A stretch of 40,111 bases of DNA, taken from positions 1 to 40,111 of IMG/VR virus record IMGVR_UViG_3300031912_000032. One strand, written 5' to 3'. Shown piece after piece: positions 2-35,498 of this stretch; within the stretch, counting starts at the first letter, position 1; each line of letters opens with the position of its first letter. This DNA is from a virus. Its lineage: Duplodnaviria; Caudoviricetes. The notes under the pieces are model-generated. The model worked only from the letters and a program-made list of their open reading frames with translations. It was not told where the DNA came from and made no database searches. The position numbers were made by a program, and so were the translations under genes.

Positions 2-3000
2 GATTCGTCGCCTACTCTAACGTGCAGTGCGTCTAATACCTGGGTTACATCCGTTATAGCTCTGGCTCCGAGTGCGGGTGGCACTCTGGCATTTGATGCT
101 GCTTCGACTACTGCTGCGATTACTGCACTTGGTAACTCCTTCACTCCGCCGGCAGTAACTGCCGGATTTGCGGGTGATTCCTCGCTTATCATGGTAGTTG
201 GTACTGGAAGTAGCAGTAGCCTTTCCATTACGTCTAGTACCAACGTCCCGCCATCTGGCTGGACGAATAGTGCCGGGTTTGCCACTAGTACCGGGAATAC
301 TACTAACCACCGTGTTGCCGGTACTATGTATCAGACGGGGATTGCCTCTGCCGGTAGCGTAGTGCCTGGCTCCGATAGCTTTACCACCGTCGCGGCACAG
401 ACGTTTGCGTTTTGTTCTATCCAGGTTCTTGTCCAGGACGTTCCAGGCTCAACGACTTATTCCGTTGCTGGCTCGGCTCCGGCAGCTTCCAGTAGCAATG
501 GTACTGTAGGGCTCAATGGAGTCCTGACGGGCTCCGCTCCGGCTTCCGCTAGCGCGAGTGGTTCCGTTACGAGCACCGGAGTTATAACAGGCTCCTCGCC
601 TCCCAGTTCTTATGCTACTGGTACTGTTTCCTCAGTTTTCAGGATAGCAGCTTCATCGGCTTCTACGTCAGGCACTAATGGTGCGCTAGGTACGCTTGGC
701 GTTCTTGCTGGATCCGCGTCCTCTACCGTTTCCGCTAACGGTGCGGTAAGTCTTGTTAAGGCTCCTATTGAGCTGGATGGTAGTTCGGTTGCATCCTCTA
801 CGGCTAATGGCGCGTTTGCGGCTGCTGTCTATGTCGTATCGGGCTCTGCTGATTCAGGCCCTGCCAATTCGGCTAGCGGTGCCGTAATCAAGATTGGCTC
901 TCCGGTAGTTACTCAGGACGGCCGGGTTAGTACCAAGGTTACTGGGACGAGTGTTGGGCCAGCCGTCACCGGGACCTATTCCTGGAACGTTGGTGATCTA
1001 CTGGTCGCTCACCTAGGTATGGACAACATCCTGGGTGCGATCAGCTTTAGCGCAGTTCCCAGCTTTAGTGCCTGGACTGACCTGACTGATAATAGTGTTG
1101 GATCGGGCACTAACGGCCTCCGGAACCGTGCCGCCTGGTGCCAATGTACTACCGCATTTACTGGTACTGCGTCGGTAACAGCTACCGTACCATCCTCTGC
1201 GGCAAACGTCCTAGAGCTATTCATCATAACTGGTGAGGATTCAGCAGGAGCGCTACGCGGGCAGAATAACGCGACTTCCCTGACTGCGGTGCCTACGTTT
1301 ACCATAACTGCTACTGCTGGTGGGGATTTCAACGGGACTACCCTGATACTTGGGACTTCTGCCATCCCGAGTGGTACGGCGGCAAATACTGCGTCGGGCT
1401 GGCCGGTAGTCCAGTCCTCGGCAACGACGTATGGGACTACCGGCGGCCAGGCAAAGTCAAACGTCTCGCTGGCATGGGCGGTAGGCACACAGTCGGTCGT
1501 TGGTGCTGGTAGTGTAACGGGAAACTGCCAGGCCGGAGCCGGTACTAACGGGACTGTTACGGACGGCTTTATCGTCGCCTCTCTGTCGCCAGGCCCGGTA
1601 ACGTTTGAGGTTGATGGCTCCTCGGATACTACAGGCGTACTGTCCGCCAATGGTACGCTAGGCACTGTGGGCGTCCTCGCGGGTAACAGTATCAATAACG
1701 TATCGTCTGCGAGCGGTACCGTTGTTGCCGCAATGGCGTTGACCGGATATGCTCCTGCCGTATCAACAGGCGATGGCTCGGTTGCTAGCTTCCGGATCGT
1801 AGCGGGCTCTGCTGCCTCTACTTCGCTAGCTAATGGTACATTCGGGCTACTCGCGGCACTATCAGGAACTGCGGCTAGCGTATCAGCCGCGAGCGGAGCC
1901 GTTACTCAGGTCATGGCTCCGGCCGGTACGTCCAGTACGGTGTCGCTGGCTAATGGTACTGTTACCTGGACTGCGGTCATATCCGGTCTGTCTACGATTG
2001 CGTCTATCGCTAATGGTACGTTCGGTGCGGCTGCCCTATCCGGTTCATCCTCATCGGCTTCGCTCGCGTCCGGCTCTCAGACGTCAGTCCTGGCTGTCTC
2101 AGGATCAGCCGCATCCTCCTCACCGGCAGCCGGAACTGTTTATGCTACCCTAACACTTAATGGCTCGGCTGCGTCCTCGTCTGTAGCCAATGGTGCATTC
2201 GGGCTAATTGGGGTATTTGCGGGTTCATCAGTAACCGGGAGCGGTGCGGCCGGTACCGTCTCCAGTCTCCTTGCGGTAACTGGTTCTGGGATTACGGCTA
2301 GCCAGGGTAATGCTAACGTCGCGATTACTGCGGGAGCACAGACTTACGTTATAGCAGGGCAGTCTGCGTCTGTATCGTCGGCCAGTGGTACGGTTATCCT
2401 GCAGGGAGTCACATCCGGTAGTGCGATCACAGCTAGCTCGGCATCAGGAGCCTTGACGCTGGCTGCGGCCGTATCCGGTAGTTCATCTACGGTTAGCCAG
2501 GCTACTGGCTCTCTAAGCAGGACCGGCATTCTTTCCGGTAGCTCCATCACTATCTCTACGGCAAACGGTTCCCTTACCGCTGTAGGTGTGGTATCCGGCT
2601 CCTCTGCCGTATCCTCGTCCGCGAATGGCTGGCTCGCGGGAGGCCCTGTATCCGGAAGCTCTCTAACGGCCTCTACGGCTTCCGGGAGCCTAGGACTCCG
2701 GGCCGTCCTTGCGGGAAGCTCTACGGCCTCCTCCGTCGCGTCCGGTGCTATTGTCGCGGTAGGCGTCCTCTCCGGCTCTAGTGTGACCGGGAGTATGGGC
2801 ACCGGAGCGGTGTCCATATCAAAGGCTCCGCTCACGCTCTCCGGCTCCGGGGTAACGCCATCCTCCGCGAGCGGAGCCGTTACCGGGCTCCTCGCGGCTC
2901 TAGGAAGCTCTCTAACGGCTTCGACGGCCGGAGGGACGCTAGGACTCCGGGGAGCCGTCTCCGGAGCCGCTACGGCCGTCTCCGTCGCGTCCGGGGCCGT

Positions 3001-3304
3001 TTACGCGGCCGGAGTCCTCTCGGGAACCGGAATTACGGCTAGTTATGCTCACGGATGGCTCATCGAGGCAGCCCGTATCTCTGGCGTGAGCATTACGGCA
3101 TCCGGAGGCGATGGGACTCTCCTGCCTCCGTTCGTCGCCGGAGCCCTACCTTCCAACCTCTCGTCCACTGTCGTCTATACACGATGGATCCTAAAGGCTG
3201 ATGTCTCTCGCGACGATTCAGCTACCGGCTCTCCGGTCGTATACGCAAAGTCCAATAATGCTACCACTACAACCAATTCAATTAGTTCCGAGGTGACACG
3301 ATGA
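2..3304 (+). CDS. Large Ser/Ala/Gly/Thr-rich virion protein (putative head fibre/decoration or displaced minor tail), 5'-truncated
   Basis: Frame is open from base 2 through the ATG at 191, so the gene begins upstream of the window. It has many ~21-aa repeats of the type SGSSxTxSxAxGxL interrupted by beta-rich globular segments, and lies just upstream of scaffold and capsid. Confidence 0.6.
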   Translation, partial: DSSPTLTCSASNTWVTSVIALAPSAGGTLAFDAASTTAAITALGNSFTPPAVTAGFAGDSSLIMVVGTGSSSSLSITSSTNVPPSGWTNSAGFATSTGNTTNHRVAGTMYQTGIASAGSVVPGSDSFTTVAAQTFAFCSIQVLVQDVPGSTTYSVAGSAPAASSSNGTVGLNGVLTGSAPASASASGSVTSTGVITGSSPPSSYATGTVSSVFRIAASSASTSGTNGALGTLGVLAGSASSTVSANGAVSLVKAPIELDGSSVASSTANGAFAAAVYVVSGSADSGPANSASGAVIKIGSPVVTQDGRVSTKVTGTSVGPAVTGTYSWNVGDLLVAHLGMDNILGAISFSAVPSFSAWTDLTDNSVGSGTNGLRNRAAWCQCTTAFTGTASVTATVPSSAANVLELFIITGEDSAGALRGQNNATSLTAVPTFTITATAGGDFNGTTLILGTSAIPSGTAANTASGWPVVQSSATTYGTTGGQAKSNVSLAWAVGTQSVVGAGSVTGNCQAGAGTNGTVTDGFIVASLSPGPVTFEVDGSSDTTGVLSANGTLGTVGVLAGNSINNVSSASGTVVAAMALTGYAPAVSTGDGSVASFRIVAGSAASTSLANGTFGLLAALSGTAASVSAASGAVTQVMAPAGTSSTVSLANGTVTWTAVISGLSTIASIANGTFGAAALSGSSSSASLASGSQTSVLAVSGSAASSSPAAGTVYATLTLNGSAASSSVANGAFGLIGVFAGSSVTGSGAAGTVSSLLAVTGSGITASQGNANVAITAGAQTYVIAGQSASVSSASGTVILQGVTSGSAITASSASGALTLAAAVSGSSSTVSQATGSLSRTGILSGSSITISTANGSLTAVGVVSGSSAVSSSANGWLAGGPVSGSSLTASTASGSLGLRAVLAGSSTASSVASGAIVAVGVLSGSSVTGSMGTGAVSISKAPLTLSGSGVTPSSASGAVTGLLAALGSSLTASTAGGTLGLRGAVSGAATAVSVASGAVYAAGVLSGTGITASYAHGWLIEAARISGVSITASGGDGTLLPPFVAGALPSNLSSTVVYTRWILKADVSRDDSATGSPVVYAKSNNATTTTNSISSEVTR

Positions 3305-3949: not shown

Positions 3950-4564
3950 ATGAGTGAGGATGCTGGAGCCGCTACCGATGCCGGAACGGCTGACGTAGAT
4001 GCTGATGCCATCGCGGCCGGAACGGACGCGGTAGATGCTGAAGCGGAACAGCTTCTGGGAGATATGCTCGACAAGGACCCAGACGCTCTGGCGAGCGAGC
4101 TAGATAAATGGCGTAAGGAATCCCGTAAGTGGGAGAGTCGCGCCAAGCAGAATTCCGATGCGGCCGCACGGCTCAAGGACATCGAGCAGAAGAACATGAC
4201 TGAGCTTGAGAAGGCTCAGGCGGCACAGCGAGAGGCAGAGGAGCGGGCCATAACGGCCGTCGCTACCCACAATCGAGTCATGGCTGCGGCCGCTCACAAT
4301 CTCCCGGTAGAGCTTATCGATGATCTCGGCTCCGGAACGGAGGAGGAGATCAATGAGCGCGCGGAGAGATTTGCGCGAGTTATCCAGGGAGCGGCACAGG
4401 ATATTGCGAATGACATACTCGCGCAGAACGCAAACCGGAACGGTATGCCAATGGGCGCACGCCCAGTCGAGTCGATGAGACCAGGATCAGCGCCAGCCAG
4501 CGGTGGAACGCCAACGACGGCTGAGGACTGGTTTAGGCAACTAGTAAATCAGCGAAACGAATAA
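3950..4564 (+). CDS. Capsid scaffolding protein
   Basis: Acidic N-terminus, coiled-coil KWRKESRKWESRAKQN...MTELEKAQ, immediately upstream of the capsid gene. Confidence 0.85.
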   Translation: MSEDAGAATDAGTADVDADAIAAGTDAVDAEAEQLLGDMLDKDPDALASELDKWRKESRKWESRAKQNSDAAARLKDIEQKNMTELEKAQAAQREAEERAITAVATHNRVMAAAAHNLPVELIDDLGSGTEEEINERAERFARVIQGAAQDIANDILAQNANRNGMPMGARPVESMRPGSAPASGGTPTTAEDWFRQLVNQRNE

Positions 4565-4578
4565 TAGAAAGGCAAACC

Positions 4579-5764
4579 GTGCCGACGTATGGAACACACA
4601 TCGGCCGTACCACCACTGGCTCTGATCCACTCGTCCCGGAGCCTCTAGCTACGGCCATCATTCAGGAAGCGCCCAAGGCCTCAGCCGCGCTTACCCTGAT
4701 GAACAAAACGGTCTTGTCCGCCAAGACCCAGCGCATGCCCGTCCTCGATGTCCTCCCGGTCGCATATTGGGTTGGGGGTGATACAGGAATGAAGCAGACG
4801 AGTATGCAACAGTGGAAGAACGTGGTCATGGTTGTAGAAGAACTCGCCTGCATTTTACATCGTTCCTATTCCAGAAGCCTATCTGGATGACGCGGACGTA
4901 CCACTCTGGAACGAGGTTCAGCCTCGCATTACAGAGGCTGTGGGTCAGCTCATCGACCTGGCTGTTCTCTGGGGGATCAACAAGCCAACGACCTGGGGCG
5001 AAGCCGTCTTCACCGGAGCCGGTAAGTCCGGCCACTACGTCATCCAGGGGACCAACGTTGACCTGGGCCAGGACGTTGCCAAACTCGCGCAGCAGATGGC
5101 TCTTACCGGCTATACGGTTAACGGCTTTGCGGCAATGCCGGGAATGTCGTGGCAGCTGGTCGGTATGCGCTCCGCGCAAGGCGTCCCGATTTACCAGCCG
5201 GATATGACAGATACTCCCGGTGGGACGCTCTACGGCTACGACATGTCCGAGGTCAACAATGGGTCCTGGCAGATGGGCCTTACCGGAGCCGTCATGCTCT
5301 GCGGCGACTTTACTAAGTCGATCATCGGAATGCGGCGTGATATCACCTTCAAGATGTTCACTGAAGGCGTTATCTCCGACGACACCGGCAAGGTCATCCT
5401 CAACCTCATGCAGCAGGACTCCGTGGCGATGCGGATGACTATGCGGCTCGCGTACGCGACCGTCAACCCGGTCACGATCATGCAGCCGTCGGCCGTTATC
5501 TCCGGGACGAACCCGCAGCGGTGGCCGTATGGCGCAGTCCTGCCAGTCGGCGCAACCGCTCCTACGGCGGCAGCGCTCAACGTCATCCAGGCTCCTCCGT
5601 ATCCGTATACTGGCTCATTCGCCTACGATCCTACGGAAGCAGAGCTTGACAACCCGCAGGAGACGGAGAGTGCGAAGGCGCATTCGGCCGCACAAGAAGC
5701 CAATGAGCGCGAGGTAAGCGAGCGGACACGGGCTCGCTCGCGCGCTCCACGCAAAGCGGAGTAA
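4579..5764 (+). CDS. Major capsid protein (HK97 fold), frame broken by an apparent 7-nt insertion at ~4851-4860
   Basis: RBS AGAAAGG plus GTG. ORFs 4579-4890 and the +1 frame ending at 5764 join to give ...EELACIVPIPEAYLDDADVPLWNEVQPRITEAVGQLID...; typical motifs PVAYWVGG, GDFTKSIIG, NLMQQDSVAMR. Confidence 0.85.
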
Positions 5765-12319: not shown

Positions 12320-13218
12320 CCCTAGCTCCGACGTATACAATACCGTACCTAAGTTATATTGACCCTGACGCTCATGAATGGATCTTGTCTGATCTCGGAC
12401 TTCCTAACGGCTATGTCTGTACTGGGATATCCGGAGCTACCGGCATCCCGGTATCGCTCCAGTCGATTCCCGTCCTAGGCGGTACGGCCGTCCCACTCCT
12501 CTACCTTCCGCAGCCGAATACACTTACCCTGGGCGTGTACCTAGAGACACCTCCAGGAGGTACGGAGAATGACTATTACAAATTGCTTGATGCTTTCGTC
12601 CGTGCCTTCTATAACCGGCGCAACGATGTACCGGCTCCGGGCTATCTTGTTGTTGGGCGTCCGGACGGTACGAAACGGCAGCTTGCGGTCTACTGTATTG
12701 CGGGCCTTGATACGGCCGATCACGGAATCCTGAATGCCGTTTACGGGCTAAGTCTTGAGGCTCCTGATCCACACTGGCAAGATCAGCAGGCCCAGCAGGT
12801 TCTCTATTCGCTCTCTACGGCTACCGGCATCCTCCCTCTCCTCCCGGTGTTCCTAGGTGGCGGTACAGTCCTAGGGACTTCCCTAGTCGTTAACGATGGG
12901 GGAGCTATCGCCTACCCGGTATGGACGATTACCGGACCTGGGACTCCAACGATCCAGAACATCACTACGGGCCGACAATGGTCTCTGGGTACCGCGATAC
13001 CAGCCGGGCAGATTGTGACAGTCAGTACCGTCCCTAATCAGCAATACGTCTATAACAATACGACGGCCACTTCATGGTGGAACAATCTTGTAATCTCAAC
13101 CTCTCGCGATCTATGGAGTCTACAGGTAGGAGATAATCAGATCAATATCCAGCTTTCTGGAGCTACCGCGAATAGTTCCATTCAGCTTAGCTGGACGAGG
13201 AGGTGGCAGCGGGCTTGA
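12316..13218 (+). CDS. Distal tail protein (Dit)/minor tail
   Basis: Follows TMP; LEAPDPHW, VNDGGAIAYPVWTITGP, LWSLQVGDNQI motifs. Confidence 0.8.
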   Translation: MTLAPTYTIPYLSYIDPDAHEWILSDLGLPNGYVCTGISGATGIPVSLQSIPVLGGTAVPLLYLPQPNTLTLGVYLETPPGGTENDYYKLLDAFVRAFYNRRNDVPAPGYLVVGRPDGTKRQLAVYCIAGLDTADHGILNAVYGLSLEAPDPHWQDQQAQQVLYSLSTATGILPLLPVFLGGGTVLGTSLVVNDGGAIAYPVWTITGPGTPTIQNITTGRQWSLGTAIPAGQIVTVSTVPNQQYVYNNTTATSWWNNLVISTSRDLWSLQVGDNQINIQLSGATANSSIQLSWTRRWQRA

Positions 13219-16109
13219 CTAATCCTGTTGTCGTATCGGTGGGTGTCGGCACCCGTAGTGTTACCGCTACCTGTGCCGGGACATATGCGCGTCCTCCGGC
13301 CGCAAATAACCTGCTTGTTGCGGCAGTAGCGGGTTCAGCTACGGCTACGGCTAACTGGGCCGTTGCGCAGCATTCCGGGACGACTGGATGGACTCTGGTT
13401 CCTGGAAGCTCAATCGGGAGTAACGGCGCGACTAGCTTCTGTGGAGTGGCATTCTTTACTAAGGTGGCGACTGGCTCGGATGCCGTTCCGTCCTTTGACT
13501 GTACGCTGGGGTCGGTCAATATTGGCTCTTGGTGTACTATATGGGAAATATGGAACCCTAACTCGTCTCCTATTGATACTGTCGGTACGGTGGCCGGTGG
13601 AGCTACGGCCGTCTCTAAGACTTCGCTGTCGGTCTCAACCTCGGCTTCGCCATCCGATCCTGGCGATATTGTCCTGTACGCTACCTCTACCGCACAGAGT
13701 ACCAATGGTCCTGCTACCTATTCGCGAGCCGGTAACGCATCGGCCGATGTCGCGAATGATGGCGGTAATGCCTATAACACCCATTTTGATTTCCAGGGGT
13801 ACTGGGGCCAGCGCTGTTCTACTACGTCTGTAATGACTATGGCGCCAGCGCTATCCAACGCCCAGCCTGTCTTCTGGTCCGGAGCTATAGTCTGTATTCT
13901 TGGCGGGACGGCTACGGCTCCGGCCGGTGCGCCCGCTCCGGTAGGAGGCCCGTGGACTAACATGGGATCTCCTGCTACGTCGCTGGATATTGTCTGCGGT
14001 TATGTAGGCGACGTTATCATTGTTGCTAGCAAGGTCAGTAACGCAACCAATAATGTGAGCGGCGTATCCGACTCTGCGGGCCTTACTACTGGCTGGACCA
14101 AGATCCTGGGGCCATTTACCGACACAAGTGCCTCGCCACATACCCAGGACATCTGGATGGGCCAGGTTACCGGGACAGGGAATACTACCCTTAACTTTAC
14201 GTTCAGTTCAGCCATCGGCTCTGCCGGAACTGAATTTGACGCGATTGAGTTTTCTAACGGGCAGGGGAGTGTAGCCGGACAGTCGGACTGGACTACATGG
14301 TCGTCCGATAAGGGAAGTACGCAGAATAACACGACGGCTAGCACGACGGTATCCTGGCCGGCTATTGCGCCGGCAAAGATCAACGGCGAGATATTCATCG
14401 GCAAGGCCCGTATCCCGTCCGGAGGCCCGTACGGAGCCGTAACCCCTGCTCCACTCGGGAATGTCAAGAATTCAAATAACAACCCAGTCCTCTTCAATTC
14501 CGGCGGTGCCGTAACAACATCGACTAGCGCATCGCTTGCCGATCAGGCTTCAGCGGCATCGTACGTTGTCCAGGCTCTAGTTAGCCAGGCCGTAACATTT
14601 CCCGTAGCAGGATCATCATCAACGGCTAGTCCTGCGTCAGGAACGCTTGGCTCAGGGATGGTAACAGCAGGCTCGTCATCGGCTAGCAGTTCTGCTTCCG
14701 GGACGTTTACCGGTGCGATTCCTACAGCCGCTTCCTCGGTAACGGCTACGGTCGCGAGCGGGACGTTTAGCGGCGGGCAGCTAGCTATATCAGGATCGTC
14801 ACCAGCTAGCTCGTATGCTGAGGGTGCCTTTACGGCCGTTTACGCTATATCCGGGCAGTCTAGCACCCAGTCTGCTGCTTACGGGCCTGCTTTTGCTAGT
14901 TCCGTATTTGTACCTCCTCCAGGAGGTTCTCAGCTACCTATCACAATTTACTGGTATGACGCTAACTTTAATCTTAGGGGAATTATTCCGTTCTACTCAA
15001 TCGTTGCTACGCTCAACTACAACGCAGCCGGCTCCTGGGTTATCGTCCTCCCATACTCGCAGGATATGTGGAACATGGTTATGTCCGGCGATATCATTAT
15101 TCATGTCGACTGGATGGGCCTTTATCAGTTTGGCGGCAAATGCGAACAGCCGGAATACTCCGACTCAATACCCGGCTCACGCGGGGCAGGTACGTCGCCT
15201 GGTAAGTTCATTACCCTGTCGGGTGCCGATTACCTCGGGATTATCGCTAACCGGATTGCCTACCCGGCTCCGGCTACGCTATGGACCGGGCAGACAGGCA
15301 CGGCTAAGGATTCAGTTACGGCAGTAGCCTGTGAGACGGCAATCAAACATTATGTTACCAATAACCTCGGCTCCGGAGCCGTAGCGTCGCGACGTGTAGC
15401 ATTCCTGACTATTGCGGCAGACTTGCATAGAGGAGCGAACGTTAGCTACACGGTTCAGTTCCTGAGTGGCGTTGATCTCAACCTCATGGATATCATCCGG
15501 ACGCTAACGATTAACGGTGGCCCGCTAGGGGTGAAGGTTACTAAGAGCGGAGCCGGGCTTGTCTTTGACTGCTATGTACCTCGCGACCTATCTAAGACTG
15601 CCTGGTTTAGCGAAGCCCTAGGCAACCTAACGTCCGTCGCTCTCTCGATAACCGACCCAACCGTAACTAATGCGCTGGTCCAGGGAGCTTCTACTTTCTA
15701 TGAGGCGAACACTACATATCCGAGTATGTGGGATAGGGTAGAGGACTTTGTAGACCAGTCGAGCCAGACGGATTCGGTTCAGGTTCAGCAGAGTGGGATA
15801 GCGGCTCTAGGTGGAGGTGCGGCCGGGCCTTCACTCTCCGTTACCGCATCCGACATCCCGTACCTAACGTTTGGACGTGACTATGGGCTAGGCGATACGG
15901 TAACGGTAGAGGTTGTACCGGGAGTAACGTATCAGGATATTGTAAGCTCCGTTACCCTAACGGCTGACCCATCCCAGCAACCGCCCATATTTGTTGTCCC
16001 AACGATAGGCGCGAGCCAGTCCGTTACGGCTTCCGATTCAAAGGTAATATCACACCTGCTCGCTCGCGTACGGCTACTGGAAAAGAAACTAGCGGCACAG
16101 AGAGGTTAG
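13215..16109 (+). CDS. Minor tail protein: C-terminal siphovirus Gp37-like hub domain with ~570-aa N-terminal extension
   Basis: TTG 13215 after GAGGAGG overlaps the Dit stop. C-terminal ~390 aa carry NAAGSW...FGRDYGLGDTVTV...RVRLLEK; the N-terminus has beta-rich domains plus SGSS repeats. Confidence 0.75.
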   Translation: MTNPVVVSVGVGTRSVTATCAGTYARPPAANNLLVAAVAGSATATANWAVAQHSGTTGWTLVPGSSIGSNGATSFCGVAFFTKVATGSDAVPSFDCTLGSVNIGSWCTIWEIWNPNSSPIDTVGTVAGGATAVSKTSLSVSTSASPSDPGDIVLYATSTAQSTNGPATYSRAGNASADVANDGGNAYNTHFDFQGYWGQRCSTTSVMTMAPALSNAQPVFWSGAIVCILGGTATAPAGAPAPVGGPWTNMGSPATSLDIVCGYVGDVIIVASKVSNATNNVSGVSDSAGLTTGWTKILGPFTDTSASPHTQDIWMGQVTGTGNTTLNFTFSSAIGSAGTEFDAIEFSNGQGSVAGQSDWTTWSSDKGSTQNNTTASTTVSWPAIAPAKINGEIFIGKARIPSGGPYGAVTPAPLGNVKNSNNNPVLFNSGGAVTTSTSASLADQASAASYVVQALVSQAVTFPVAGSSSTASPASGTLGSGMVTAGSSSASSSASGTFTGAIPTAASSVTATVASGTFSGGQLAISGSSPASSYAEGAFTAVYAISGQSSTQSAAYGPAFASSVFVPPPGGSQLPITIYWYDANFNLRGIIPFYSIVATLNYNAAGSWVIVLPYSQDMWNMVMSGDIIIHVDWMGLYQFGGKCEQPEYSDSIPGSRGAGTSPGKFITLSGADYLGIIANRIAYPAPATLWTGQTGTAKDSVTAVACETAIKHYVTNNLGSGAVASRRVAFLTIAADLHRGANVSYTVQFLSGVDLNLMDIIRTLTINGGPLGVKVTKSGAGLVFDCYVPRDLSKTAWFSEALGNLTSVALSITDPTVTNALVQGASTFYEANTTYPSMWDRVEDFVDQSSQTDSVQVQQSGIAALGGGAAGPSLSVTASDIPYLTFGRDYGLGDTVTVEVVPGVTYQDIVSSVTLTADPSQQPPIFVVPTIGASQSVTASDSKVISHLLARVRLLEKKLAAQRG

Positions 16110-18938: not shown

Positions 18939-19071
18939 GAAGGCACAGACCGTGGCCGACGATATCCGGAACCGTGGGGACATCTACTACACGGATGCCT
19001 CCGGCTCTACCGTCAACGTAACGGTAGGGGACGTTACCGTGGAGGACGTGCCAGAGCAGGTAGGCCAATGA
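18898..19071 (+). CDS. 57-aa hypothetical protein
   Basis: RBS GAGGAGG plus GTG; MKKVLLALHPFTDEKAQ...VTVEDVPEQVGQ. Confidence 0.55.
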   Translation: MKKVLLALHPFTDEKAQTVADDIRNRGDIYYTDASGSTVNVTVGDVTVEDVPEQVGQ

Positions 19072-19219
19072 CCTGGTGGTACTGGCTGCTGGTCGCGGTG
19101 CTCGCGCTCGGGACGCTCGCGTTCTTTGCACTGCTGGCATACGTGATCCACCTGCTCGCCCACGTGTGGAACCCGTGATGGCCAGGCATTGCGGGGGCGT
19201 TACTGTGGAGGATGTGCCA
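19027..19219 (+). repeat. 27-bp imperfect direct repeat (19027-19053 and 19193-19219)
   Basis: ggggacgttaccgtggaggacgtgcca vs gggggcgttactgtggaggatgtgcca, 24/27 identical. Confidence 0.75.
19068..19178 (+). CDS. 36-aa single-pass membrane microprotein
   Basis: ATGA overlap; MTWWYWLLVAVLALGTLAFFALLAYVIHLLAHVWNP. Confidence 0.6.
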   Translation: MTWWYWLLVAVLALGTLAFFALLAYVIHLLAHVWNP

Positions 19220-19827
19220 TCCTTACCATCGAGGAGCTAGCGCGACTGGAAATTGAACAGGTAAAGCGCGAACGGGAGACAACGGAGCCCGACCCAGACA
19301 TGTGGCGATGGTCGCCTCTTGAGATCTGGGAATTCGCACGGATGCTTGAGGTTGCGCGACAGCTAGCCGCAGACGGCCTCCGTAGGCTCAGGTTCGCGGA
19401 GGCCGGAAGCGGTATCGGCACAAAGCTCTATCTAGCTCAGAACAAGTTTGATATGAGTGCTACAGGCTTTGAGATTAACGAGGAGTATATCACCCAGGCC
19501 CGCAAGCTTGACGTCTGTACGAACAAGTGGGACCTACGGAAGGCTCATCCTCCGTGGAGGCTTTACGACATCGTCTATATGGCCCGGCCATTTAAGGATG
19601 ATGATTACGAGGTACAGTGGGAGCGCGAGGTTCACGACCGTATGCGCGATAAGGCCGTCCTCATCTCGGCATATGCGGCCGTGAAACCTTATAGCTGGCC
19701 CTGCTATTACCGGGCTCCGTTCCGTGGAGTGTGGATGAAGACACCGAGGACGGGGCAATATAGTCAGATGATTCAACGTAGTGCCACTGGTTCTGATCCT
19801 CTGGTTCCGGAGCCTGGTCCTCGATAA
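19189..19827 (+). CDS. Class I SAM-dependent methyltransferase with capsid-N-arm-like C-terminal tail
   Basis: Motif I FAEAGSGIG, GFEINEEY, YDIVYMARPF; start uncertain (TTG 19189, or ATC 19219 after GGAGG). Confidence 0.8.
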   Translation: MRGRYCGGCAILTIEELARLEIEQVKRERETTEPDPDMWRWSPLEIWEFARMLEVARQLAADGLRRLRFAEAGSGIGTKLYLAQNKFDMSATGFEINEEYITQARKLDVCTNKWDLRKAHPPWRLYDIVYMARPFKDDDYEVQWEREVHDRMRDKAVLISAYAAVKPYSWPCYYRAPFRGVWMKTPRTGQYSQMIQRSATGSDPLVPEPGPR

Positions 19828-20164
19828 GCCCTGGGAATCTACCGGGCTCCTCCGGGCTCTCCGGGCTCTCCGGCTCCTCGCGTCTATGCCGTCCGGGACC
19901 TCCGGCATATCTGTGCTTGCCCACTTTTCGCTTCCTGAACATAAGGCTCTCCGCTCGCTCGCCTAGCTCTGATTCTAATACGGAGAGCGATGGACACGCT
20001 ACCCCTAGCGAGCGATGGCATTCCGCACGGCCTGCCGGGCTCCGGGCTCCGGGAAGCTCCGGGCCGTACCCGCACCGGAGCGAGCCGTAGAGCCCGCTAC
20101 GGGCCTCTCCGGAGCCGGGGGATATCTCCGGTAGGCCGGAGAGCCCGACGCTTCTAAAGGCTTC
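19828..20164. other. Convergent intergenic region with several inverted repeats (terminators or structured RNA)
   Basis: Stems 19885-19909, 19946-53/19981-88, 19955-62/20008-15, 20085-20102 and 20101-20146. Confidence 0.5.
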
Positions 20165-20584
20165 CTAGCCCGGTACCGGGACTGTCTTACCGCACTGTTG
20201 ACAGACTTGGTACTTCCGGACGTAAAGGAATCCCCTGGAGACGGTACGCCAGTGCTTGTGGCGGCAATGCTTCGGGCTCTTACGCTTTGGCTTCCGGACT
20301 CGTCCGGGCTTGCCAGCACCCATCTTCCGCTTGCGTTGTTGCTCGCGCCATTTCCTCCTGGCGTAATCTTTAAGCTTCTGCTTAACCGGCCGCTCGCGAA
20401 GTCTCTTCTCGCGTGCCTGCTGCCGGTCGTATTTGGCCTTGTTCATGATCTTGTAGCTAAACGGCCCAGTCTTTACGCGGACCAGTCCGGACTTAGTTAG
20501 GTCTGCGTCACTCACCTTATGCCAGGGAGTGCCTTCCGGGGCAAAGTTATTACGGTGCGGCTCTTCTCCTCCGTCAGGCGGCAT
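20165..20584 (-). CDS. Basic hypothetical protein with C-terminal zinc-ribbon-like motif
   Basis: Lys/Arg-rich; CRH...CQQCGK; last gene of the left-transcribed arm. Confidence 0.6.
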   Translation of the reverse strand: MPPDGGEEPHRNNFAPEGTPWHKVSDADLTKSGLVRVKTGPFSYKIMNKAKYDRQQAREKRLRERPVKQKLKDYARRKWREQQRKRKMGAGKPGRVRKPKRKSPKHCRHKHWRTVSRGFLYVRKYQVCQQCGKTVPVPG

Positions 20585-20813
20585 TGCTATGTCCTCTCCG
20601 TTCGTGGAAGTGACCTAGCTCCTCCGGCTTAGTATCGTGAAGCCGGTCATGAAAGATACGCCAGGCTTCCTCTAGGTCGCCTCCGATACCCATCGGCTTT
20701 AGCTCCCACATACCGGCAAGGTCGCCTCTATGTCTATGAGTCATATGAAGGCAGAACGTTGACAGGTCCATATGATCGGCGCATTGAACCTTCTCACCCT
20801 CAGTCGGGATCAA
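20574..20813 (-). CDS. Small His-rich protein
   Basis: HMTHRH...FHDRLH...GHFHE; overlaps both neighbours. Confidence 0.6.
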   Translation of the reverse strand: MIPTEGEKVQCADHMDLSTFCLHMTHRHRGDLAGMWELKPMGIGGDLEEAWRIFHDRLHDTKPEELGHFHERRGHSNAA

Positions 20814-23070
20814 TTACCCACATCCTTTCAACTTTCACCGGAGTACCGAATCCGGCGATACGGTTACCAGCAATCACGACGACATCGTGGTTGACGTGAA
20901 TCCGCTCTATCTCCCGGAGGAGGTCTGGAAATTTCCAGCGGTTGATACGCGCATAGACTTCCTCCTCTCCGGTATCGAACATATGAAGCGTAGCGCGCTT
21001 AACAAGATCCGGCCGTTTAAGCTCCAGTATGATCTCCTCATACTCGCGCCCGGTACGGCTCCGTTCGTCCTCGACAATGTCCTTGATCTCAACGCGGCGT
21101 ACCATACCGAAGTAGACTACGCGAGGTCCAGGGACGTATCGTGTACCGGGCTCCCACTTAGGCACCTTCATACCGGCCAGGAAGTCACCGTTATGGGACG
21201 GTAGCGGGATACCGGAGCCTTTCTGTTTCCGGATCCAGCGGCGTACCGTCGCGAGCCTCCGCTCTGTCCGGTAGAGCCCGAATGGATCGCGGGCTTCCGA
21301 GAATGTCTCCATCTTCCGGATGCGCTCAAGCCCGACTCCGGGCACGGCCGTAAGCTCTACCCATTCATCGGCATGGCCGTATGCCTCAATCCGGCTAGCC
21401 ATCTTGGGGCCGACACCGGGAATCTGGCGCCAGCCGGCGACAAGCGAGCCTTGCGGCTCCTGGCCGTCCTGACAGATTACCTGCGGCCGCCAGGTACTCT
21501 GGCTAATCCCTATCTGCGGAGGCCGGATATCTATTGAATGAGCGAGTGCGTCTTGCATGAGACGGAACTGCTGTTCCTTGTCGGCCTTCTGAAGTGATGC
21601 CGCGTAAAACTCTAGCGGGTAATGAACCTTGAGCCAGGCAGTCCAGAATGCGAGGAGCGAGTAGGAGACGGCGTGCGCGACGTTAAAGGCATAGGTACCG
21701 GCCGTAACGAGACGGTGCCATATCTGGTCGGCTAGCTCGTGATCGATGCCGTGGAGCCGCTTTGCGCCTTCCGCGAACAGATCGAAATTCTGCTGGAATG
21801 CGGCCTGCCCTGATTTCTTAGCGATAATCCTCCGGATATGATGGACGTTAGTCCATTCAAGTCCACCGACTTCTTTAAGGCAGCGGAGGATATGCTCCTG
21901 ATAGATCATCTGCCCGTAGGTATGGGCGGTGATCTCATCCACAATAGGGTGAAGTGAGGCTGCGACATTTCGCCCATGTCGAACTTCCACATACTCAGCT
22001 GTCTGTCCGGAGAACAATGGACCGGGACGAGATAGAGCATTGATGTCGGTGATATGCCCGAAGTGCTCTGGGCGTACATCCCGGCATACCAGACGTGTGG
22101 CGCGACCTTCAAACTGAAATACTCCACGGACGTCATTCCTCCGGAATACATCAATGGTTTCCGGGTCATCGTCGGGAATCGCATAGAGATCCTCCAGGGT
22201 AAGGCCGGCCATATTAAGACACCGGGTTATCATGCCTAGAGTCGAGAGCCCTAGGAAGTCAAGCTTGAGAGCGTCCACATACTCCGCGTCATACTTGTCG
22301 ATGCTGACTACCCGCTCTCCGTCCCTTCCGGTATAAACGGCGCAGACGTCGGTGAGCGGGCTATCCGCAACGAGGAGCCCGCAGGCGTGAATAGAGAGCC
22401 CACGGTAGTTACCCTCTAGCCGGATAGCCTTGGCAAGGTCAGGATGAATGTTGAGGACTTCCTGCGCGGCCGGGAACAGTTCAAAGGTGTCCTCTAGGGT
22501 TGCGTCGGCTCGCGAGTCGCCTCCGCTCCGTTCTATCGCGAGACTGGCAACAGTCTCCTTAGCCCAGATGGGTATCTGGTATACTCGCGCTATGTCCTGG
22601 AGGGAATTCTTGGCCTTGTACTTGATGAAGTTGCCGATGTGGCCTACCCGGTCAGCACCGTACTTGTAGGCGATATAGTCATAGACCTTAAACCTTTCCT
22701 CATCAGAACAATCCACGTCTATATCTGGGGGATCGTGCCGGGTAACGTCAAGGAATCGCTCAAAGATCATACCAGGGTAACGGTGCGGGTTGACTTCGGT
22801 TATCCGGGTTATGTAGGCTACGTCGCTCGCGGCAGTAGAGCCGCGCCCAGGTCCGATCGTTACTCCGTTGTCCTTAGCCCACCGTATGGTATCGGACGTA
22901 AAGAGCATGAAATCTGCCAGGCCTTTGCCGAGGATCATATCCATTTCCATTTTGATGCGCTCGCCATGCCAATCTTGATCCTTAGCCGACAAGCTTCCTA
23001 GCTTCCGATAGTTCCATCCAAAGCGAAGCCATTGCCACAGCAGGTCTTCAGCCGATAGAATGTTCTTCAT
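20800..23070 (-). CDS. dnaE: DnaE-like DNA polymerase III alpha, catalytic part (no PHP domain)
   Basis: GPGRGS, FERFL, PDIDVD, HACG, KLDFLGL, GVFQFE, ALSRPGP, IYQE, YAFNVAHAVSY, WLKVHYPLEFY; own RBS GGAGGAAAGG before ATG 23070. Confidence 0.93.
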   Translation of the reverse strand: MKNILSAEDLLWQWLRFGWNYRKLGSLSAKDQDWHGERIKMEMDMILGKGLADFMLFTSDTIRWAKDNGVTIGPGRGSTAASDVAYITRITEVNPHRYPGMIFERFLDVTRHDPPDIDVDCSDEERFKVYDYIAYKYGADRVGHIGNFIKYKAKNSLQDIARVYQIPIWAKETVASLAIERSGGDSRADATLEDTFELFPAAQEVLNIHPDLAKAIRLEGNYRGLSIHACGLLVADSPLTDVCAVYTGRDGERVVSIDKYDAEYVDALKLDFLGLSTLGMITRCLNMAGLTLEDLYAIPDDDPETIDVFRRNDVRGVFQFEGRATRLVCRDVRPEHFGHITDINALSRPGPLFSGQTAEYVEVRHGRNVAASLHPIVDEITAHTYGQMIYQEHILRCLKEVGGLEWTNVHHIRRIIAKKSGQAAFQQNFDLFAEGAKRLHGIDHELADQIWHRLVTAGTYAFNVAHAVSYSLLAFWTAWLKVHYPLEFYAASLQKADKEQQFRLMQDALAHSIDIRPPQIGISQSTWRPQVICQDGQEPQGSLVAGWRQIPGVGPKMASRIEAYGHADEWVELTAVPGVGLERIRKMETFSEARDPFGLYRTERRLATVRRWIRKQKGSGIPLPSHNGDFLAGMKVPKWEPGTRYVPGPRVVYFGMVRRVEIKDIVEDERSRTGREYEEIILELKRPDLVKRATLHMFDTGEEEVYARINRWKFPDLLREIERIHVNHDVVVIAGNRIAGFGTPVKVERMWVIDPD

Positions 23071-23099
23071 GACGTCCTTTCCTCCGGAGATCATACATG

Positions 23100-23621
23100 T
23101 CAGGCCTTAATGAGCTGGGTTACTAGGACTTTGTTCCGTTCTACGATACCGGCGATGAGATTGATCCCTACGATGAACTTCCATCCCTCCCCGGAATAGG
23201 ACGAGTGCTTGTCATAATAGGGATTGTTGAAGATACGATCCCACGTCTCCTCCGACCAGAATGACTTATGGTCCGGATCAGAGTGAGCTAGCTCCGTATT
23301 CCAGTACGGGACTACGACGTTAAGATGTCCTCCGGTAAAGAGGACTCGCTGGCACTCGCGAAGGAGAGCAAGAGGATCATGGACGTGCTCAAGAAAATGG
23401 ATGGCGTAGATAGCCGACACCGTTTCGTCATCGTACGGGATTGGGTCCTTGTCGGCATCCCACTCCGGAAGGTCGAGCGCGACCGTTCCGGCGATGAGCT
23501 TCCTCCCGGCTCCAAGGTTAAGTGCGAGGCCCGGCTCATCACGCCGGAAGTCCGGGACAGTCCGGTCAATGCCGATTTGTAGGAAGTCTATAAAGTCAGA
23601 TGGACGTTTGTAGGTTACCAT
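23100..23621 (-). CDS. SAM-dependent methyltransferase (Methyltransf_11-like) between the DnaE halves
   Basis: LNLGAG, PIPYDDETV, IHFLEH, LRECQRVL...GG, DPDH. Confidence 0.85.
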   Translation of the reverse strand: MVTYKRPSDFIDFLQIGIDRTVPDFRRDEPGLALNLGAGRKLIAGTVALDLPEWDADKDPIPYDDETVSAIYAIHFLEHVHDPLALLRECQRVLFTGGHLNVVVPYWNTELAHSDPDHKSFWSEETWDRIFNNPYYDKHSSYSGEGWKFIVGINLIAGIVERNKVLVTQLIKA

Positions 23622-24553
23622 GGTTTTAGGTCATCCTCGCTAATGGGGTACTGTAGTCGTTTCGCCTTCGGCAGGGTTACGTTACACCTACCGGCTATTA
23701 TAGCCGTATTCTTAATGGCCTCCCAGGCCTCGCTCCGGGAGAGTCCTGTCTTCATGAGACGTTCGCCTAGGGCCTTATCCGACTCCGGGAATGTCATTGG
23801 CACGGCATAATTCCATTCTCGCATCTGATCCTCTACGGTATGCGCTCCTCTCCGTACTGCGTGGAGGATAGCCTGCATCTCGGAATCCTCCGGATGCGGG
23901 TAATGGATATCCTGCGTTACGACTAGCGGTACTCCTGTCATCCGCGAGAGTTTCGCATAAGCAGGGTTCATGGTACAGCTACGCTCTAGCTCATAGAACG
24001 GCTGGACCTCTAGGAAGTAACGGTCACCGAACAGATCCTGGAACCGGCTGATAAGAGCTTCGGCATCATTCCAGGCTTCCCCCGGCCGTCGCTCCTCTCC
24101 TCCCGGAACGGGGATTCCCTTTCCTCCAAGTAGACTACAGGCGAGCAGTGATCCAGAGCACCCGGATAGTACAAGCAACCCGTCCGAATGTTCCTGAAGA
24201 TTCCTTCCAGAAACAGTAGGATAATAGTAACTATCAAGATAAGACTGAGTGACAATCCGGTTGAGATTCTTGTAGCCATCACTATCTCCCGCTAGGATCG
24301 TGAGGTGGTATTTGAACTGCTGTCTGTTCTCGTCAACGGCTCCGGTATATGCCTCGATTCCAAAGATGGGCTTGATGCCCTTTGTGATAGCTGCCTTCTC
24401 AAACTGGAAGTGTGAGGAGACGTTGCCGTGTTCGGTCAGAGCCATGGCCGAATAGCCTAGCTCCGCTGCCCGTTCTACGTGCTGTGCCGGGGTACCGAAG
24501 CCGTCGCCTAAGAATGAGAACGTAGTATGGTGGTGTAGACTTACGAATCTCAT
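23615..24553 (-). CDS. dnaE: Stand-alone PHP domain of DnaE (N-terminal part)
   Basis: SLHHHTTFS, ALTEHGNV, GIKPIFGIEAY, HLTILA, LSGC, TQDIHY; metal ligands appear retained. Confidence 0.9.
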   Translation of the reverse strand: MRFVSLHHHTTFSFLGDGFGTPAQHVERAAELGYSAMALTEHGNVSSHFQFEKAAITKGIKPIFGIEAYTGAVDENRQQFKYHLTILAGDSDGYKNLNRIVTQSYLDSYYYPTVSGRNLQEHSDGLLVLSGCSGSLLACSLLGGKGIPVPGGEERRPGEAWNDAEALISRFQDLFGDRYFLEVQPFYELERSCTMNPAYAKLSRMTGVPLVVTQDIHYPHPEDSEMQAILHAVRRGAHTVEDQMREWNYAVPMTFPESDKALGERLMKTGLSRSEAWEAIKNTAIIAGRCNVTLPKAKRLQYPISEDDLKPW

Positions 24554-33594: not shown

Positions 33595-35498
33595 TAGTCC
33601 CCATCCTTTCCCAGTACCATTTCCGAGAGCTTACGCGGGCTCGCCTCCAGGACGGCCTCACGCTGCTCCTCGGTCAGGCCGGCCATCCACGAGTCTACCG
33701 TACCCGCGCTCACGAGCCGGTAAACGATAACCTGGTGGATACGGCTAACACGGTGAATCCGGGCATTGAGCTGCTCATCGTCATCCGATATCCAGGGCTC
33801 ATCAATAACGACCATCTCATCGGCAGCGTCTAGGGTAATCGACTCGCCTCCGGCCTTCCGGTTAAGGCAGACTACCTGAAGGCTATCGCCTGGATCCTGG
33901 AAGCGCGCTACGAGGTCTGAACGGTCACGGTCAGAGGTAGCTCCGGTAAGCGTCAGGACTTCAAAGCCTTCCTTACGGAGGACACTTGCGGCAAGCTCTA
34001 CAATCTCCGTAAAGGAGCTAGCAACTACAACCTTAGCTCCGGTACCCTCGCGCTCCTGCATAAACTCTACAAGCCACTCTAGCTTGTTAGACGGTAGAGC
34101 CGGCAGAACCGTACGGCCTTCGCCTATCGTCGCGCTCGCATTGGCTATCTGCCGGAGCCGCGTTATTTCCGCGAGGACTCCGCTTGCCGTCATGCGCTTG
34201 CCGTCCGCGTTGATCTCCGCGTCGGACTCCATCTGCTTATAGAGCCGGGCCTGCTCATCGGTAAGGTCAAGCTGGACGTAGCACGGGCTCTCTGGGTTCT
34301 TAGGGTCGATAGGCGTACCCGCATAATAGATCGGTGGCAGATCCTTAACGACGTCAGCCTTGGTACGCTTGAGGTAGTACGGCCGGAGCATAGCGTCCCA
34401 CGCGTCCTGGTCCTTTGGCTTCGGAACCTTCGCACCTTGTGCGATAACCTTGCCATACTTGCCGTCCTCGACTCCGAAGTGCTTCTCGGCCCAGTTCCAG
34501 AAGGATGGAAACATATCGGGCCGGACCCAGTTAAGCGTGCCCCAGGCCTTGGTAAGGTTAGACCGGAAGGGAGTCCCGCTTAGCGCGATAGCAAGCCCAT
34601 CTTCCCGGAGGTTACGCCGGAGCATGACGGCTCCGTACCGCTGTTGGGTAATGTTCTTGGACTGGTAATTGAACCGGGAAGCAAGGAGGTTATGCGATTC
34701 GTCAAGAACGATCGCATCCCACATCGGCTTGAAAAGGAAAGGCCATAGGGCTTCCTTCTCATACTTGTGAGACGGATGACCGTCCGGACGGCTCACGTAG
34801 CCGTAGAGGCAGGCTCCTGCCGTCTCTGGGCAGATCTCAATGCGCTTGGCACGGACCATCTCGATGTTGATAATAAGCATACGTGGAGCGTCCGGGTAGT
34901 CCTCACCGTACCACTCGAATTCCTGGAAGATCGCCTCACGCTCTTTCCGCGAGCCCTGGCAGACGAATGTCTCAATGCCGGGAGCCCAGCGTAGCGTCTC
35001 GCGCTCCCATACCGTCCGGGTAGCCGTACGCCGGCAGCCGACAAGAATGGTAGTGGACTTTGCCTCGATAAGAGCCGCGAGCGTCTCAAGCGTCTTGCCG
35101 AGTCCAGGGTCATCGCCTAGGATTACCCGGCCTCCGGTCAGGAGGAATCCGGCACCATTGATCTGGAAAGGACGGTTAAGCATCGCGTCGTGAAGAGCCG
35201 GGCTCTCCTCAGCTACGCGGAAGAGGTCAACACTCGCCTGGTCGCCTTCGCGAAGTTGCTCAATCATTCGCTCCTTCTCAACCTCGGCACGCGCCCATAT
35301 CGCAAGCGGAGGGAGAATCTCAAGATCGGAGCCGATAACCTGTCGGAAGGCCCGGCAGGTGTCCATGGTAAGCGGGTAGGTCCACTCCCCGTAGCGCTTA
35401 CGGGCTCCGGGGACCTTAACGGCCCAGGCTCCGGGAGAGCCTGCGAACGGGAAACGGGCCATAATCCGCTTCCCATCCGTCGTAACGATCGCCTTCAT
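33594..35498 (-). CDS. SNF2-family DNA helicase
   Basis: DDPGLGKT, VLDESH, LSGTP, KRTKADV, GGESITL, RIHR. Confidence 0.9.
   Translation of the reverse strand: MKAIVTTDGKRIMARFPFAGSPGAWAVKVPGARKRYGEWTYPLTMDTCRAFRQVIGSDLEILPPLAIWARAEVEKERMIEQLREGDQASVDLFRVAEESPALHDAMLNRPFQINGAGFLLTGGRVILGDDPGLGKTLETLAALIEAKSTTILVGCRRTATRTVWERETLRWAPGIETFVCQGSRKEREAIFQEFEWYGEDYPDAPRMLIINIEMVRAKRIEICPETAGACLYGYVSRPDGHPSHKYEKEALWPFLFKPMWDAIVLDESHNLLASRFNYQSKNITQQRYGAVMLRRNLREDGLAIALSGTPFRSNLTKAWGTLNWVRPDMFPSFWNWAEKHFGVEDGKYGKVIAQGAKVPKPKDQDAWDAMLRPYYLKRTKADVVKDLPPIYYAGTPIDPKNPESPCYVQLDLTDEQARLYKQMESDAEINADGKRMTASGVLAEITRLRQIANASATIGEGRTVLPALPSNKLEWLVEFMQEREGTGAKVVVASSFTEIVELAASVLRKEGFEVLTLTGATSDRDRSDLVARFQDPGDSLQVVCLNRKAGGESITLDAADEMVVIDEPWISDDDEQLNARIHRVSRIHQVIVYRLVSAGTVDSWMAGLTEEQREAVLEASPRKLSEMVLGKDGD

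Follow-up and report, generated by a model that had tools for sequence, protein, structure and literature searches.

The T4 CTS, which is carried by IPI-III and related proteins, is an N-terminal peptide of 10 residues that binds the scaffolding core and is cut off by gp21; several genes per genome encode it, and it has been proposed as a means to put varied proteins in heads (PMC9026906). Encapsulin cargo loading peptides (CLPs) are terminal peptides on enzymes that dock in an interior three-fold pocket of an HK97-fold shell, and they are not copies of the shell protein (10.64898/2026.07.21.739788). A penton is missing at the portal vertex, so that contacts have to be compensated there; in Oshimavirus the N-arm of an extra protein, the portal vertex protein (PVP), is described as joining the capsid sheet there (PMC12407722). 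Capsid N-arms themselves are described as binding neighbouring subunits (10.1101/2022.09.09.507160), pairing across capsomers (PMC10276861) and becoming ordered on expansion, when they move from the prohead interior to their sites (PMC9958956).

The locus described here lies in a window of 40,111 nt (the whole stretch of DNA that was analysed), in which the C-terminus of a small methyltransferase carries a copy of the N-arm of the phage's own major capsid protein. This tag resembles the T4 CTS in being a short terminal peptide on unrelated small proteins (PMC9026906), but it is mostly C-terminal, is 18–19 residues long, copies the capsid's own arm and occurs once per genome. It is C-terminal in the window and in 16 other carriers, and N-terminal only in five sister records. 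Sharing of one peptide by unrelated small proteins, as with the CTS, is seen in 10 unlinked carrier groups plus the enzyme, whereas several tagged proteins per genome are not seen (two extra copies in 0 of 23 records). The tag is like the CLPs in being a terminal peptide on an enzyme that is predicted to dock on an HK97-fold shell (10.64898/2026.07.21.739788); unlike the CLPs, it copies the phage capsid's arm, and the shell is not an encapsulin but a siphophage capsid accompanied by scaffold, neck and tail genes. PVP differs in being a dedicated globular protein, and the accessible part of its description reports no arm copy or carrier swapping (PMC12407722). By analogy, the tag may work like the T4 CTS or an encapsulin loading peptide, yet it lacks their defining features (terminus, copy number, shell type).

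The arm copy at the enzyme C-terminus (19759–19815, + strand; Y-x5-R-x5-DPLVPEP) reads YSQMIQRSATGSDPLVPEP, and the N-arm motif of the major capsid protein (4588–4644, + strand; residues 4–22, placed by sequence and alignment) reads YGTHIGRTTTGSDPLVPEP. The two are identical at 13/19 residues and 38/57 nt, and in the 10-codon core (19786–19815 versus 4615–4644) 4/30 bases differ, all at synonymous third positions. Re-reading of the sequence confirms the 13/19 identity and the four synonymous differences given in the original prediction, which had placed the start of the capsid protein at 4588; the gene starts at 4579 (GTG), and 4588 is Tyr4. In the window, the arm copy is followed by GPR and a stop codon at 19825–19827. 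The 28-residue tail aligns to the capsid arm with a BLOSUM62 score of 67, compared with 40 for the next best match in the six frames of the window, and none of 150 shuffled tails scores above 58 (mean 39.8). Within the genome, the tail has its best match in the capsid arm. The assignment of the tail as an arm copy draws on its sequence, conservation, codon usage and single copy per genome.

The window, a 40-kb part of siphophage record G000, encodes scaffold, capsid, neck, tail and endolysin proteins on its + strand, and its replication genes lie on the − strand; complete relatives are 61–70 kb, and the phages carrying the arm copy form a soil phage family. The head scaffolding protein is encoded by a gene of its own (3950–4564, + strand), and the capsid protein is therefore taken to be without a delta domain, with the motif at its true N-terminus. 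The major capsid protein gene (4579–5764, + strand; assigned by sequence and fold) encodes an HK97-fold protein of the Muddy/Oxtober96 kind and is frameshifted in the window by 7 extra bases near 4852–4858. The same shifted letters occur in 4/4 near-identical assemblies (L027–L030) and in contigs of 3 runs, all of which may represent one field site. Either the phage is defective or the gene is recoded, and because the window's copy of the phage may be decaying, the argument here is built on intact relatives. An intact close homologue of the capsid protein has about 44% identity to those of the mycobacteriophages NoShow and Muddy and of Rhodococcus phage ReT1, and its nearest structures are Oxtober96 and Muddy (Z 23); this likeness makes an actinobacterial host likely for the window phage. 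Tyr4, Arg10, Asp16, Pro20 and Pro22 are invariant in the arm among 91 capsid sequences. In a monomer model of a close homologue (P0270), residues 1–21 are coil with a helix from residue 22, and the arm is extended with a pLDDT of 39–54, as expected of an arm that binds a neighbour (10.1101/2022.09.09.507160). By sequence, the arm aligns with Muddy residues 13–20. According to the model, the segment copied by the tail is the HK97-fold capsid N-arm, extended before the first helix. The C-terminus of the capsid protein is formed by a charged, variable extension of ~70 residues (window about 5560–5764; P0270 residues 340–400), which is absent from Muddy and is predicted to form a long helix in the P0270 model.

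Elsewhere in the window, two very long Ser/Ala/Gly/Thr-rich proteins (191–3304 and 13203–14900), without a PHROG match over these parts, are probably fibre or surface-layer-like appendages; one is encoded amid the head genes and the other is fused ahead of a minor tail protein. A DnaE-type polymerase is split into two genes (20800–24553) that form one piece in G021 and G092, and a second, unrelated methyltransferase (23100–23621, phrog_6636) lies between them. The gap between the converging arms (19828–20165) contains clustered direct and inverted repeats of the CCGGGCTC type, which could be a terminator region or a structured RNA; similar G+C-rich repeats seem to come after the enzyme in some relatives.

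The tagged enzyme (19189–19827, + strand) is encoded by the last gene of the rightward late arm. Its start is uncertain: gene callers place it at TTG 19189, whereas the best ribosome site (GGAGG, 19207–19211) stands seven bases ahead of an in-frame ATC at 19219, where most homologues start, so that 19207–19221 may mark the true start on the basis of sequence and alignment. The enzyme queries used here began at 19213, which is Cys9 of the ORF opened by TTG 19189 and not a start codon. A 22-nt direct repeat (20/22; 19032–19053 and 19198–19219) flanks a small hydrophobic ORF (about 19068–19178) just before the enzyme, which suggests, from the sequence, a recent insertion that disturbed the enzyme's start. 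The methyltransferase core reaches about residue 180 of the 204-aa query, and EAGSGIG, GFEI and DIVY are conserved in homologues. The enzyme model has a pLDDT of 92.9, and all 50 best of the 449 chains at Z of at least 8 in structure comparison are methyltransferase folds. With its Rossmann core, glycine-rich motif I, acidic end of strand 2 and motif IV strand, the protein is a small class I SAM-dependent methyltransferase.

By fold, the enzyme most resembles a bacterial DOT1L-like protein, yeast Dot1p, a Salinibacter protein and Sulfolobus aKMT, at 10–18% identity, with PDB 9NE1, 1U2Z, 5FAD, 5FA8 and 5BXY among the top Dot1/aKMT structures. The top scores are Z 15.2 (rmsd 3.4, 165 aligned residues) and Z 14.8 (3.4, 171), and Dot1/aKMT proteins take ranks 1–3 in VIA and ranks 1–2 in Foldseek (rank 1 aKMT); other methyltransferases are tied with them within 1 Z (5FTW, 14.6; 2P8J, 14.3). 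Pfam DOT1 matches 6/126 members of the enzyme family, weakly (best E 0.0045), and Atlas matches fall in generic methyltransferase clusters only. Like Dot1 and aKMT, the enzyme has a minimal Rossmann core and no DNA-recognition domain, although identity is only 10–18%. As a best guess from the models, it is probably an N-methyltransferase of the Dot1/aKMT type acting on protein lysines. The window's clade has no cultured member, and among 50,697 GenBank phage records the enzyme has no match at E 0.1; the single match of the tail there (E 3), in the middle of a protein of Streptomyces phage Speedwell, was rejected as chance. No PHROG family was found for the enzyme or for the small carriers tested.

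The tail is widely retained on the enzyme. A search found 187 enzyme homologues, and tail classes were counted on the 120 matches listed: 90/120 end in Y-x5-R-x4-6-D[PA][LFV][VI]xxP, 9 have a looser form, 14 have another tail, and 7 are short or unparsed. Long retention of the strict or loose form (99/120 of the matches listed) suggests that the cargo may matter too. In the 28 distinct tails with DNA, the Asp, Val and last Pro are invariant, and the Pro and Leu nearly so. First and second codon positions are fixed, whereas third positions use all allowed bases; selection therefore acts on the peptide, which upholds that part of the original prediction. Within its 19 residues, the tag keeps the spread-out positions that are invariant or nearly so in the capsid arm (Tyr4, Arg10, Asp16, Pro17, Leu18, Val19, Pro22). 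Recent gene conversion from the capsid gene was rejected, given that tag and arm share codons hardly more often in own-genome pairs (45/96) than in foreign pairs (577/1419). Remote homologues of the enzyme, sought among 1.84 billion representatives, are without the tail apart from one loose case, P0132 (41% identity), whose looser arm-like tail is possibly an independent fusion. Along the enzyme tree, tail types have been swapped, with 11 changes for the Ser type among 71 rows. Copying of another protein by tail-less enzymes was rejected, their ends matching nothing above background in their own genomes (3 genomes), as was a mini-peptide starting at the conserved Met, for which no consistent ribosome site or promoter was seen by eye or found otherwise and upstream of which the conserved Tyr sits.

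The motif also occurs on proteins unrelated to the enzyme. A first pattern, the codons of GSDPL[VI][PQH]EP, gave 108 loci in IMG/VR with 101 in-frame matches. By rule, 67 of these are capsid arms, and 5 are enzyme tails; inspection by eye sorted the remaining 29 into 17 sister-phage capsid arms, 5 tails at the C-terminus of other ORFs, 5 leaders at an N-terminus and 2 unclear cases. The 117 loci found with a second pattern in IMG/VR and JGI metagenomes were enzyme tails in 59 cases and ends of other ORFs in 36; a further 11 were N-terminal or long, and 11 were out of frame. About as many in-frame matches as out-of-frame ones are therefore expected to be chance (L357, L382, L401, L452 and copies). 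After pooling and de-duplication, the motif ends 22 non-enzyme ORFs, of which 1 was dropped as chance (L357, which lacks the EP and was removed before carriers were counted), 5 are free peptides and 16 are other ORFs. These 16 distinct carriers fall into 10 groups without a BLAST link. Of these, 14/16 stop exactly two residues past the last Pro, a condition that the search pattern did not contain; most overlap the start codon of the next gene. The motif is not specific to the enzyme: genomes keep, once each, not the enzyme but a mobile capsid-arm peptide, for which the methyltransferase is the commonest carrier.

Copy number was determined by a position-weight scan of 24 records, 23 of which contain the capsid arm. 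Exactly one extra copy was found in 20 of the 23, none in 3 and two in 0; true matches scored 31–50 bits and everything else at most 7.2. Records without an extra copy are G058 (a 13-kb fragment), G099 (complete) and G104 (77% complete), and 10/11 records that are at least 90% complete have one copy. G030 and G031 are near-duplicates in this count, and most records were reached via the enzyme or the motif, which biases 'at least one copy' upward but not 'never two'. G021, G030 and G033, first chosen because their close enzyme has no tail, each carry the tag on another ORF. In cultured NoShow (first 50 of 52.8 kb), ReT1v-1 and Muddy, no second copy of the own arm was found. The arm copy is dispensable in relatives, and not every member of this capsid family has the device.

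In sister phages, three of them ~100 kb in size, the copy is flanked by a VG15/MuF-like head gene and a small conserved gene; in records long enough to include the scaffold and capsid genes, it lies upstream of both. It occurs there as a free peptide of 48–60 aa that is acidic at its start and basic at its end (L396, L428, L441, L442, L467; gene-called as P0390–P0396, two of which are 92-aa fusions with the preceding ORF) or as an in-frame leader in the same starting register as the capsid protein (L249, L284, L323, L328, L336). A conserved head-module protein of 88–96 aa (…AIRAVGRVRPNT…RIPDxW; L506:7066-7344, L200:18549-18839, G099 34476–34742) has no Pfam or PHROG match, and in five sister records the arm copy is fused in frame ahead of it as a leader, after which a second start follows. 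Within the window's clade, the tag is found either at the late arm's end (on the enzyme, and in G033) or, on the opposite strand, in a group of small genes next to the DNA polymerase (G021, G092, G090). The tagged gene is opposite in strand to the structural genes in G021, G030/G031 and G092.

Tag and own capsid arm vary together at clade level. Among 33 pairs, the 15 whose tag has Ser ahead of the Asp all have Ser in the own arm as well, and the 18 with a non-Ser tag all have a non-Ser arm; the G100 pair, added later, breaks the rule, so that 33/34 pairs fit. This pattern amounts to about two changes on a tree of capsid cores built without the arm. Permutation over 30 pairs gives p 5e-5, whereas permutation within clades gives p 0.054 (10 pairs), 0.58 (15 pairs) and 0.016 (5 pairs). 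The near-duplicates G041, G008 and c50436 were removed before permutation, the tree excluded the window's broken capsid, and the pairs c54114, c133532, c20996 and c50436 were joined only by equal length of their source sequences. Some letters are private to a tag and its own arm (RISRT in G092, ISRSSGSD in G093, RTAxG in G040). Roughly one in two paired tags falls one residue short of its own arm, and the G005 tag does not single out its own arm in the genome by alignment score. Among themselves, the tags are related (Met-Ile before the Arg); they share Met where capsids of this clade have His or Gly, and are closer to sister-phage capsid arms. The expected covariation of tail and own capsid holds between clades and is weak or absent within them; the tag follows its own capsid loosely and moves between genomes as a module.

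Docking at an N-arm site of the head, as put forward in the original prediction, is still the best class of explanation. The reading that we tentatively favour, on sequence evidence, is that the enzyme tail is a spare capsid N-arm, kept once per genome on interchangeable carriers, which would bind the arm groove of its own head where a missing neighbour has left it empty. The arm's invariant residues are kept, there is one copy per genome and the copy probably originates in the head cluster; a spare arm for a vacancy is therefore the simplest account. The carrier is attached at the end that corresponds to the capsid's free N-terminus, and the tag stops where the capsid body would begin, an arrangement that would fit a site whose owner subunit is absent. 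The tag would plug into such a vacant arm-binding site, most plausibly around the portal vertex, where it may affect assembly or stability, and the enzyme would be carried on the head as a passenger of the tag. Probably, a duplicate of the 5′ end of the capsid gene became a small head-module peptide or leader, as in the sister phages, and in the window's clade the copy would then have moved away from the head module and become joined to the 3′ end of the ORF where it landed, most often that of the enzyme.

The tag could instead be an address label that, like the T4 CTS, loads useful cargo (the methyltransferase, or small Cys/His-rich or acidic proteins) into or onto the head, so that the enzyme methylates virion lysines or is injected at infection. 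Diverse small carriers with one terminal peptide are the pattern described for T4 internal proteins (PMC9026906), the wide retention of the tail among the 120 homologues listed and the swapping of tail types along the enzyme tree point the same way, the top fold matches are protein-lysine methyltransferases, and lysine methylation of the capsid is reported in virions (PMC13288928). We nevertheless think such a label rather unlikely as the whole explanation: T4 tags several genes whereas none of the 23 records has more than one, some carriers (48–60 aa) are barely more than the tag, and tail-less enzymes persist in genomes that tag another gene. Spare arm and cargo label can both be true. Competition between the copy and native arms during expansion, which would time maturation or poison the heads of competing relatives, is consistent with the passage of arms from the prohead interior to their sites (PMC9958956) and with about half of the tags matching arms of other clades better than their own, but tag type goes with own capsid type at clade level, and such a modulator is very unlikely.

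Capsid-sensing defence and competitor decoys are known (CapRel, DSAD1), and a host sensor, protease or chaperone that recognises the capsid arm might be titrated by a spare copy or have the methyltransferase brought to it. A single carrier-indifferent copy, its early-strand location in several genomes and the resemblance of tags to capsid arms of a wider phage group would suit a decoy; we consider it unlikely, given the head-module location in sister phages, the retention of the whole 19-residue set that is invariant in the capsid, and the lack of an identified host target. That the two similar sites in each genome act as DNA or RNA (as recombination site, operator, or translational coupling or arrest signal), or are a neutral relic of recombination with the capsid gene, is highly improbable: carriers other than the enzyme mostly overlap the next gene's start, but no coupled gene follows the enzyme in the window, third codon positions alone are free in the 28 distinct tails, and codon sharing is nearly the same in own and foreign pairs. 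Least credible is the proposal of the original prediction that the enzyme methylates the capsid arm and that its tail blocks the active site as an autoinhibitory pseudo-substrate. The mean pLDDT of 79 for tail residues 191–200 in the enzyme model could mean packing on the enzyme, yet the same motif is found at the end of unrelated non-enzymes and as a free peptide within the sister phages' head module, 14/120 of the homologues listed have another tail, tail-less enzymes occur beside the same capsid arm, and there is no lysine in the tail or in capsid residues 1–25.

A parallel to the spare arm is found in T4 itself. The T4 gp61.1 protein (54 aa, annotated as hypothetical; NC_000866.4 18966–19130, L512) aligns without gaps to gp23 residues 57–93, with 14/37 residues identical and a score of 82, compared with at most 46 in 500 shuffles. 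Like the tagged proteins of the window's clade, it is a small protein that copies its own capsid arm from a gene outside the head cluster, and with its basic end it has the layout of the free peptides of the sister phages (L396, L428, L441, L442, L467); it differs from the tag in also copying the protease cut site (maturation site) upstream of the arm. No description of its function was found in the open-access literature. By this comparison, gp61.1 is a parallel and not an explanation, and the spare-arm design appears to recur. It is possible, though doubtful, that tailed phages share a general device in which one spare copy of the own N-arm, as a mobile peptide, completes the shell at the portal vertex and serves as a self-matched hook, which here would tether a Dot1-like lysine methyltransferase to the head, marking the phage's own virion or being delivered with it, and that gp61.1 would be the same device.

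No description of such a capsid-arm copy was found in the open-access literature, and the device would be a hitherto undescribed means of building a head or of attaching a protein to one. Where the portal takes the place of a penton, arm contacts are lost, and how a shell of identical subunits makes up for them has been worked out in cryo-EM maps of individual cases. An arm supplied by a separate gene would answer this need simply and reusably, and T4, with its gene 61.1, is a model phage in which the idea can be tested. Being only 19 residues long and compatible with carriers of 30 to 190 residues, the tag would also lend itself to display on, or loading into, HK97-fold shells. Should the enzyme be a head-bound lysine methyltransferase, capsid methylation, which has been ascribed to host enzymes (PMC13288928), would have a phage-encoded route as well.
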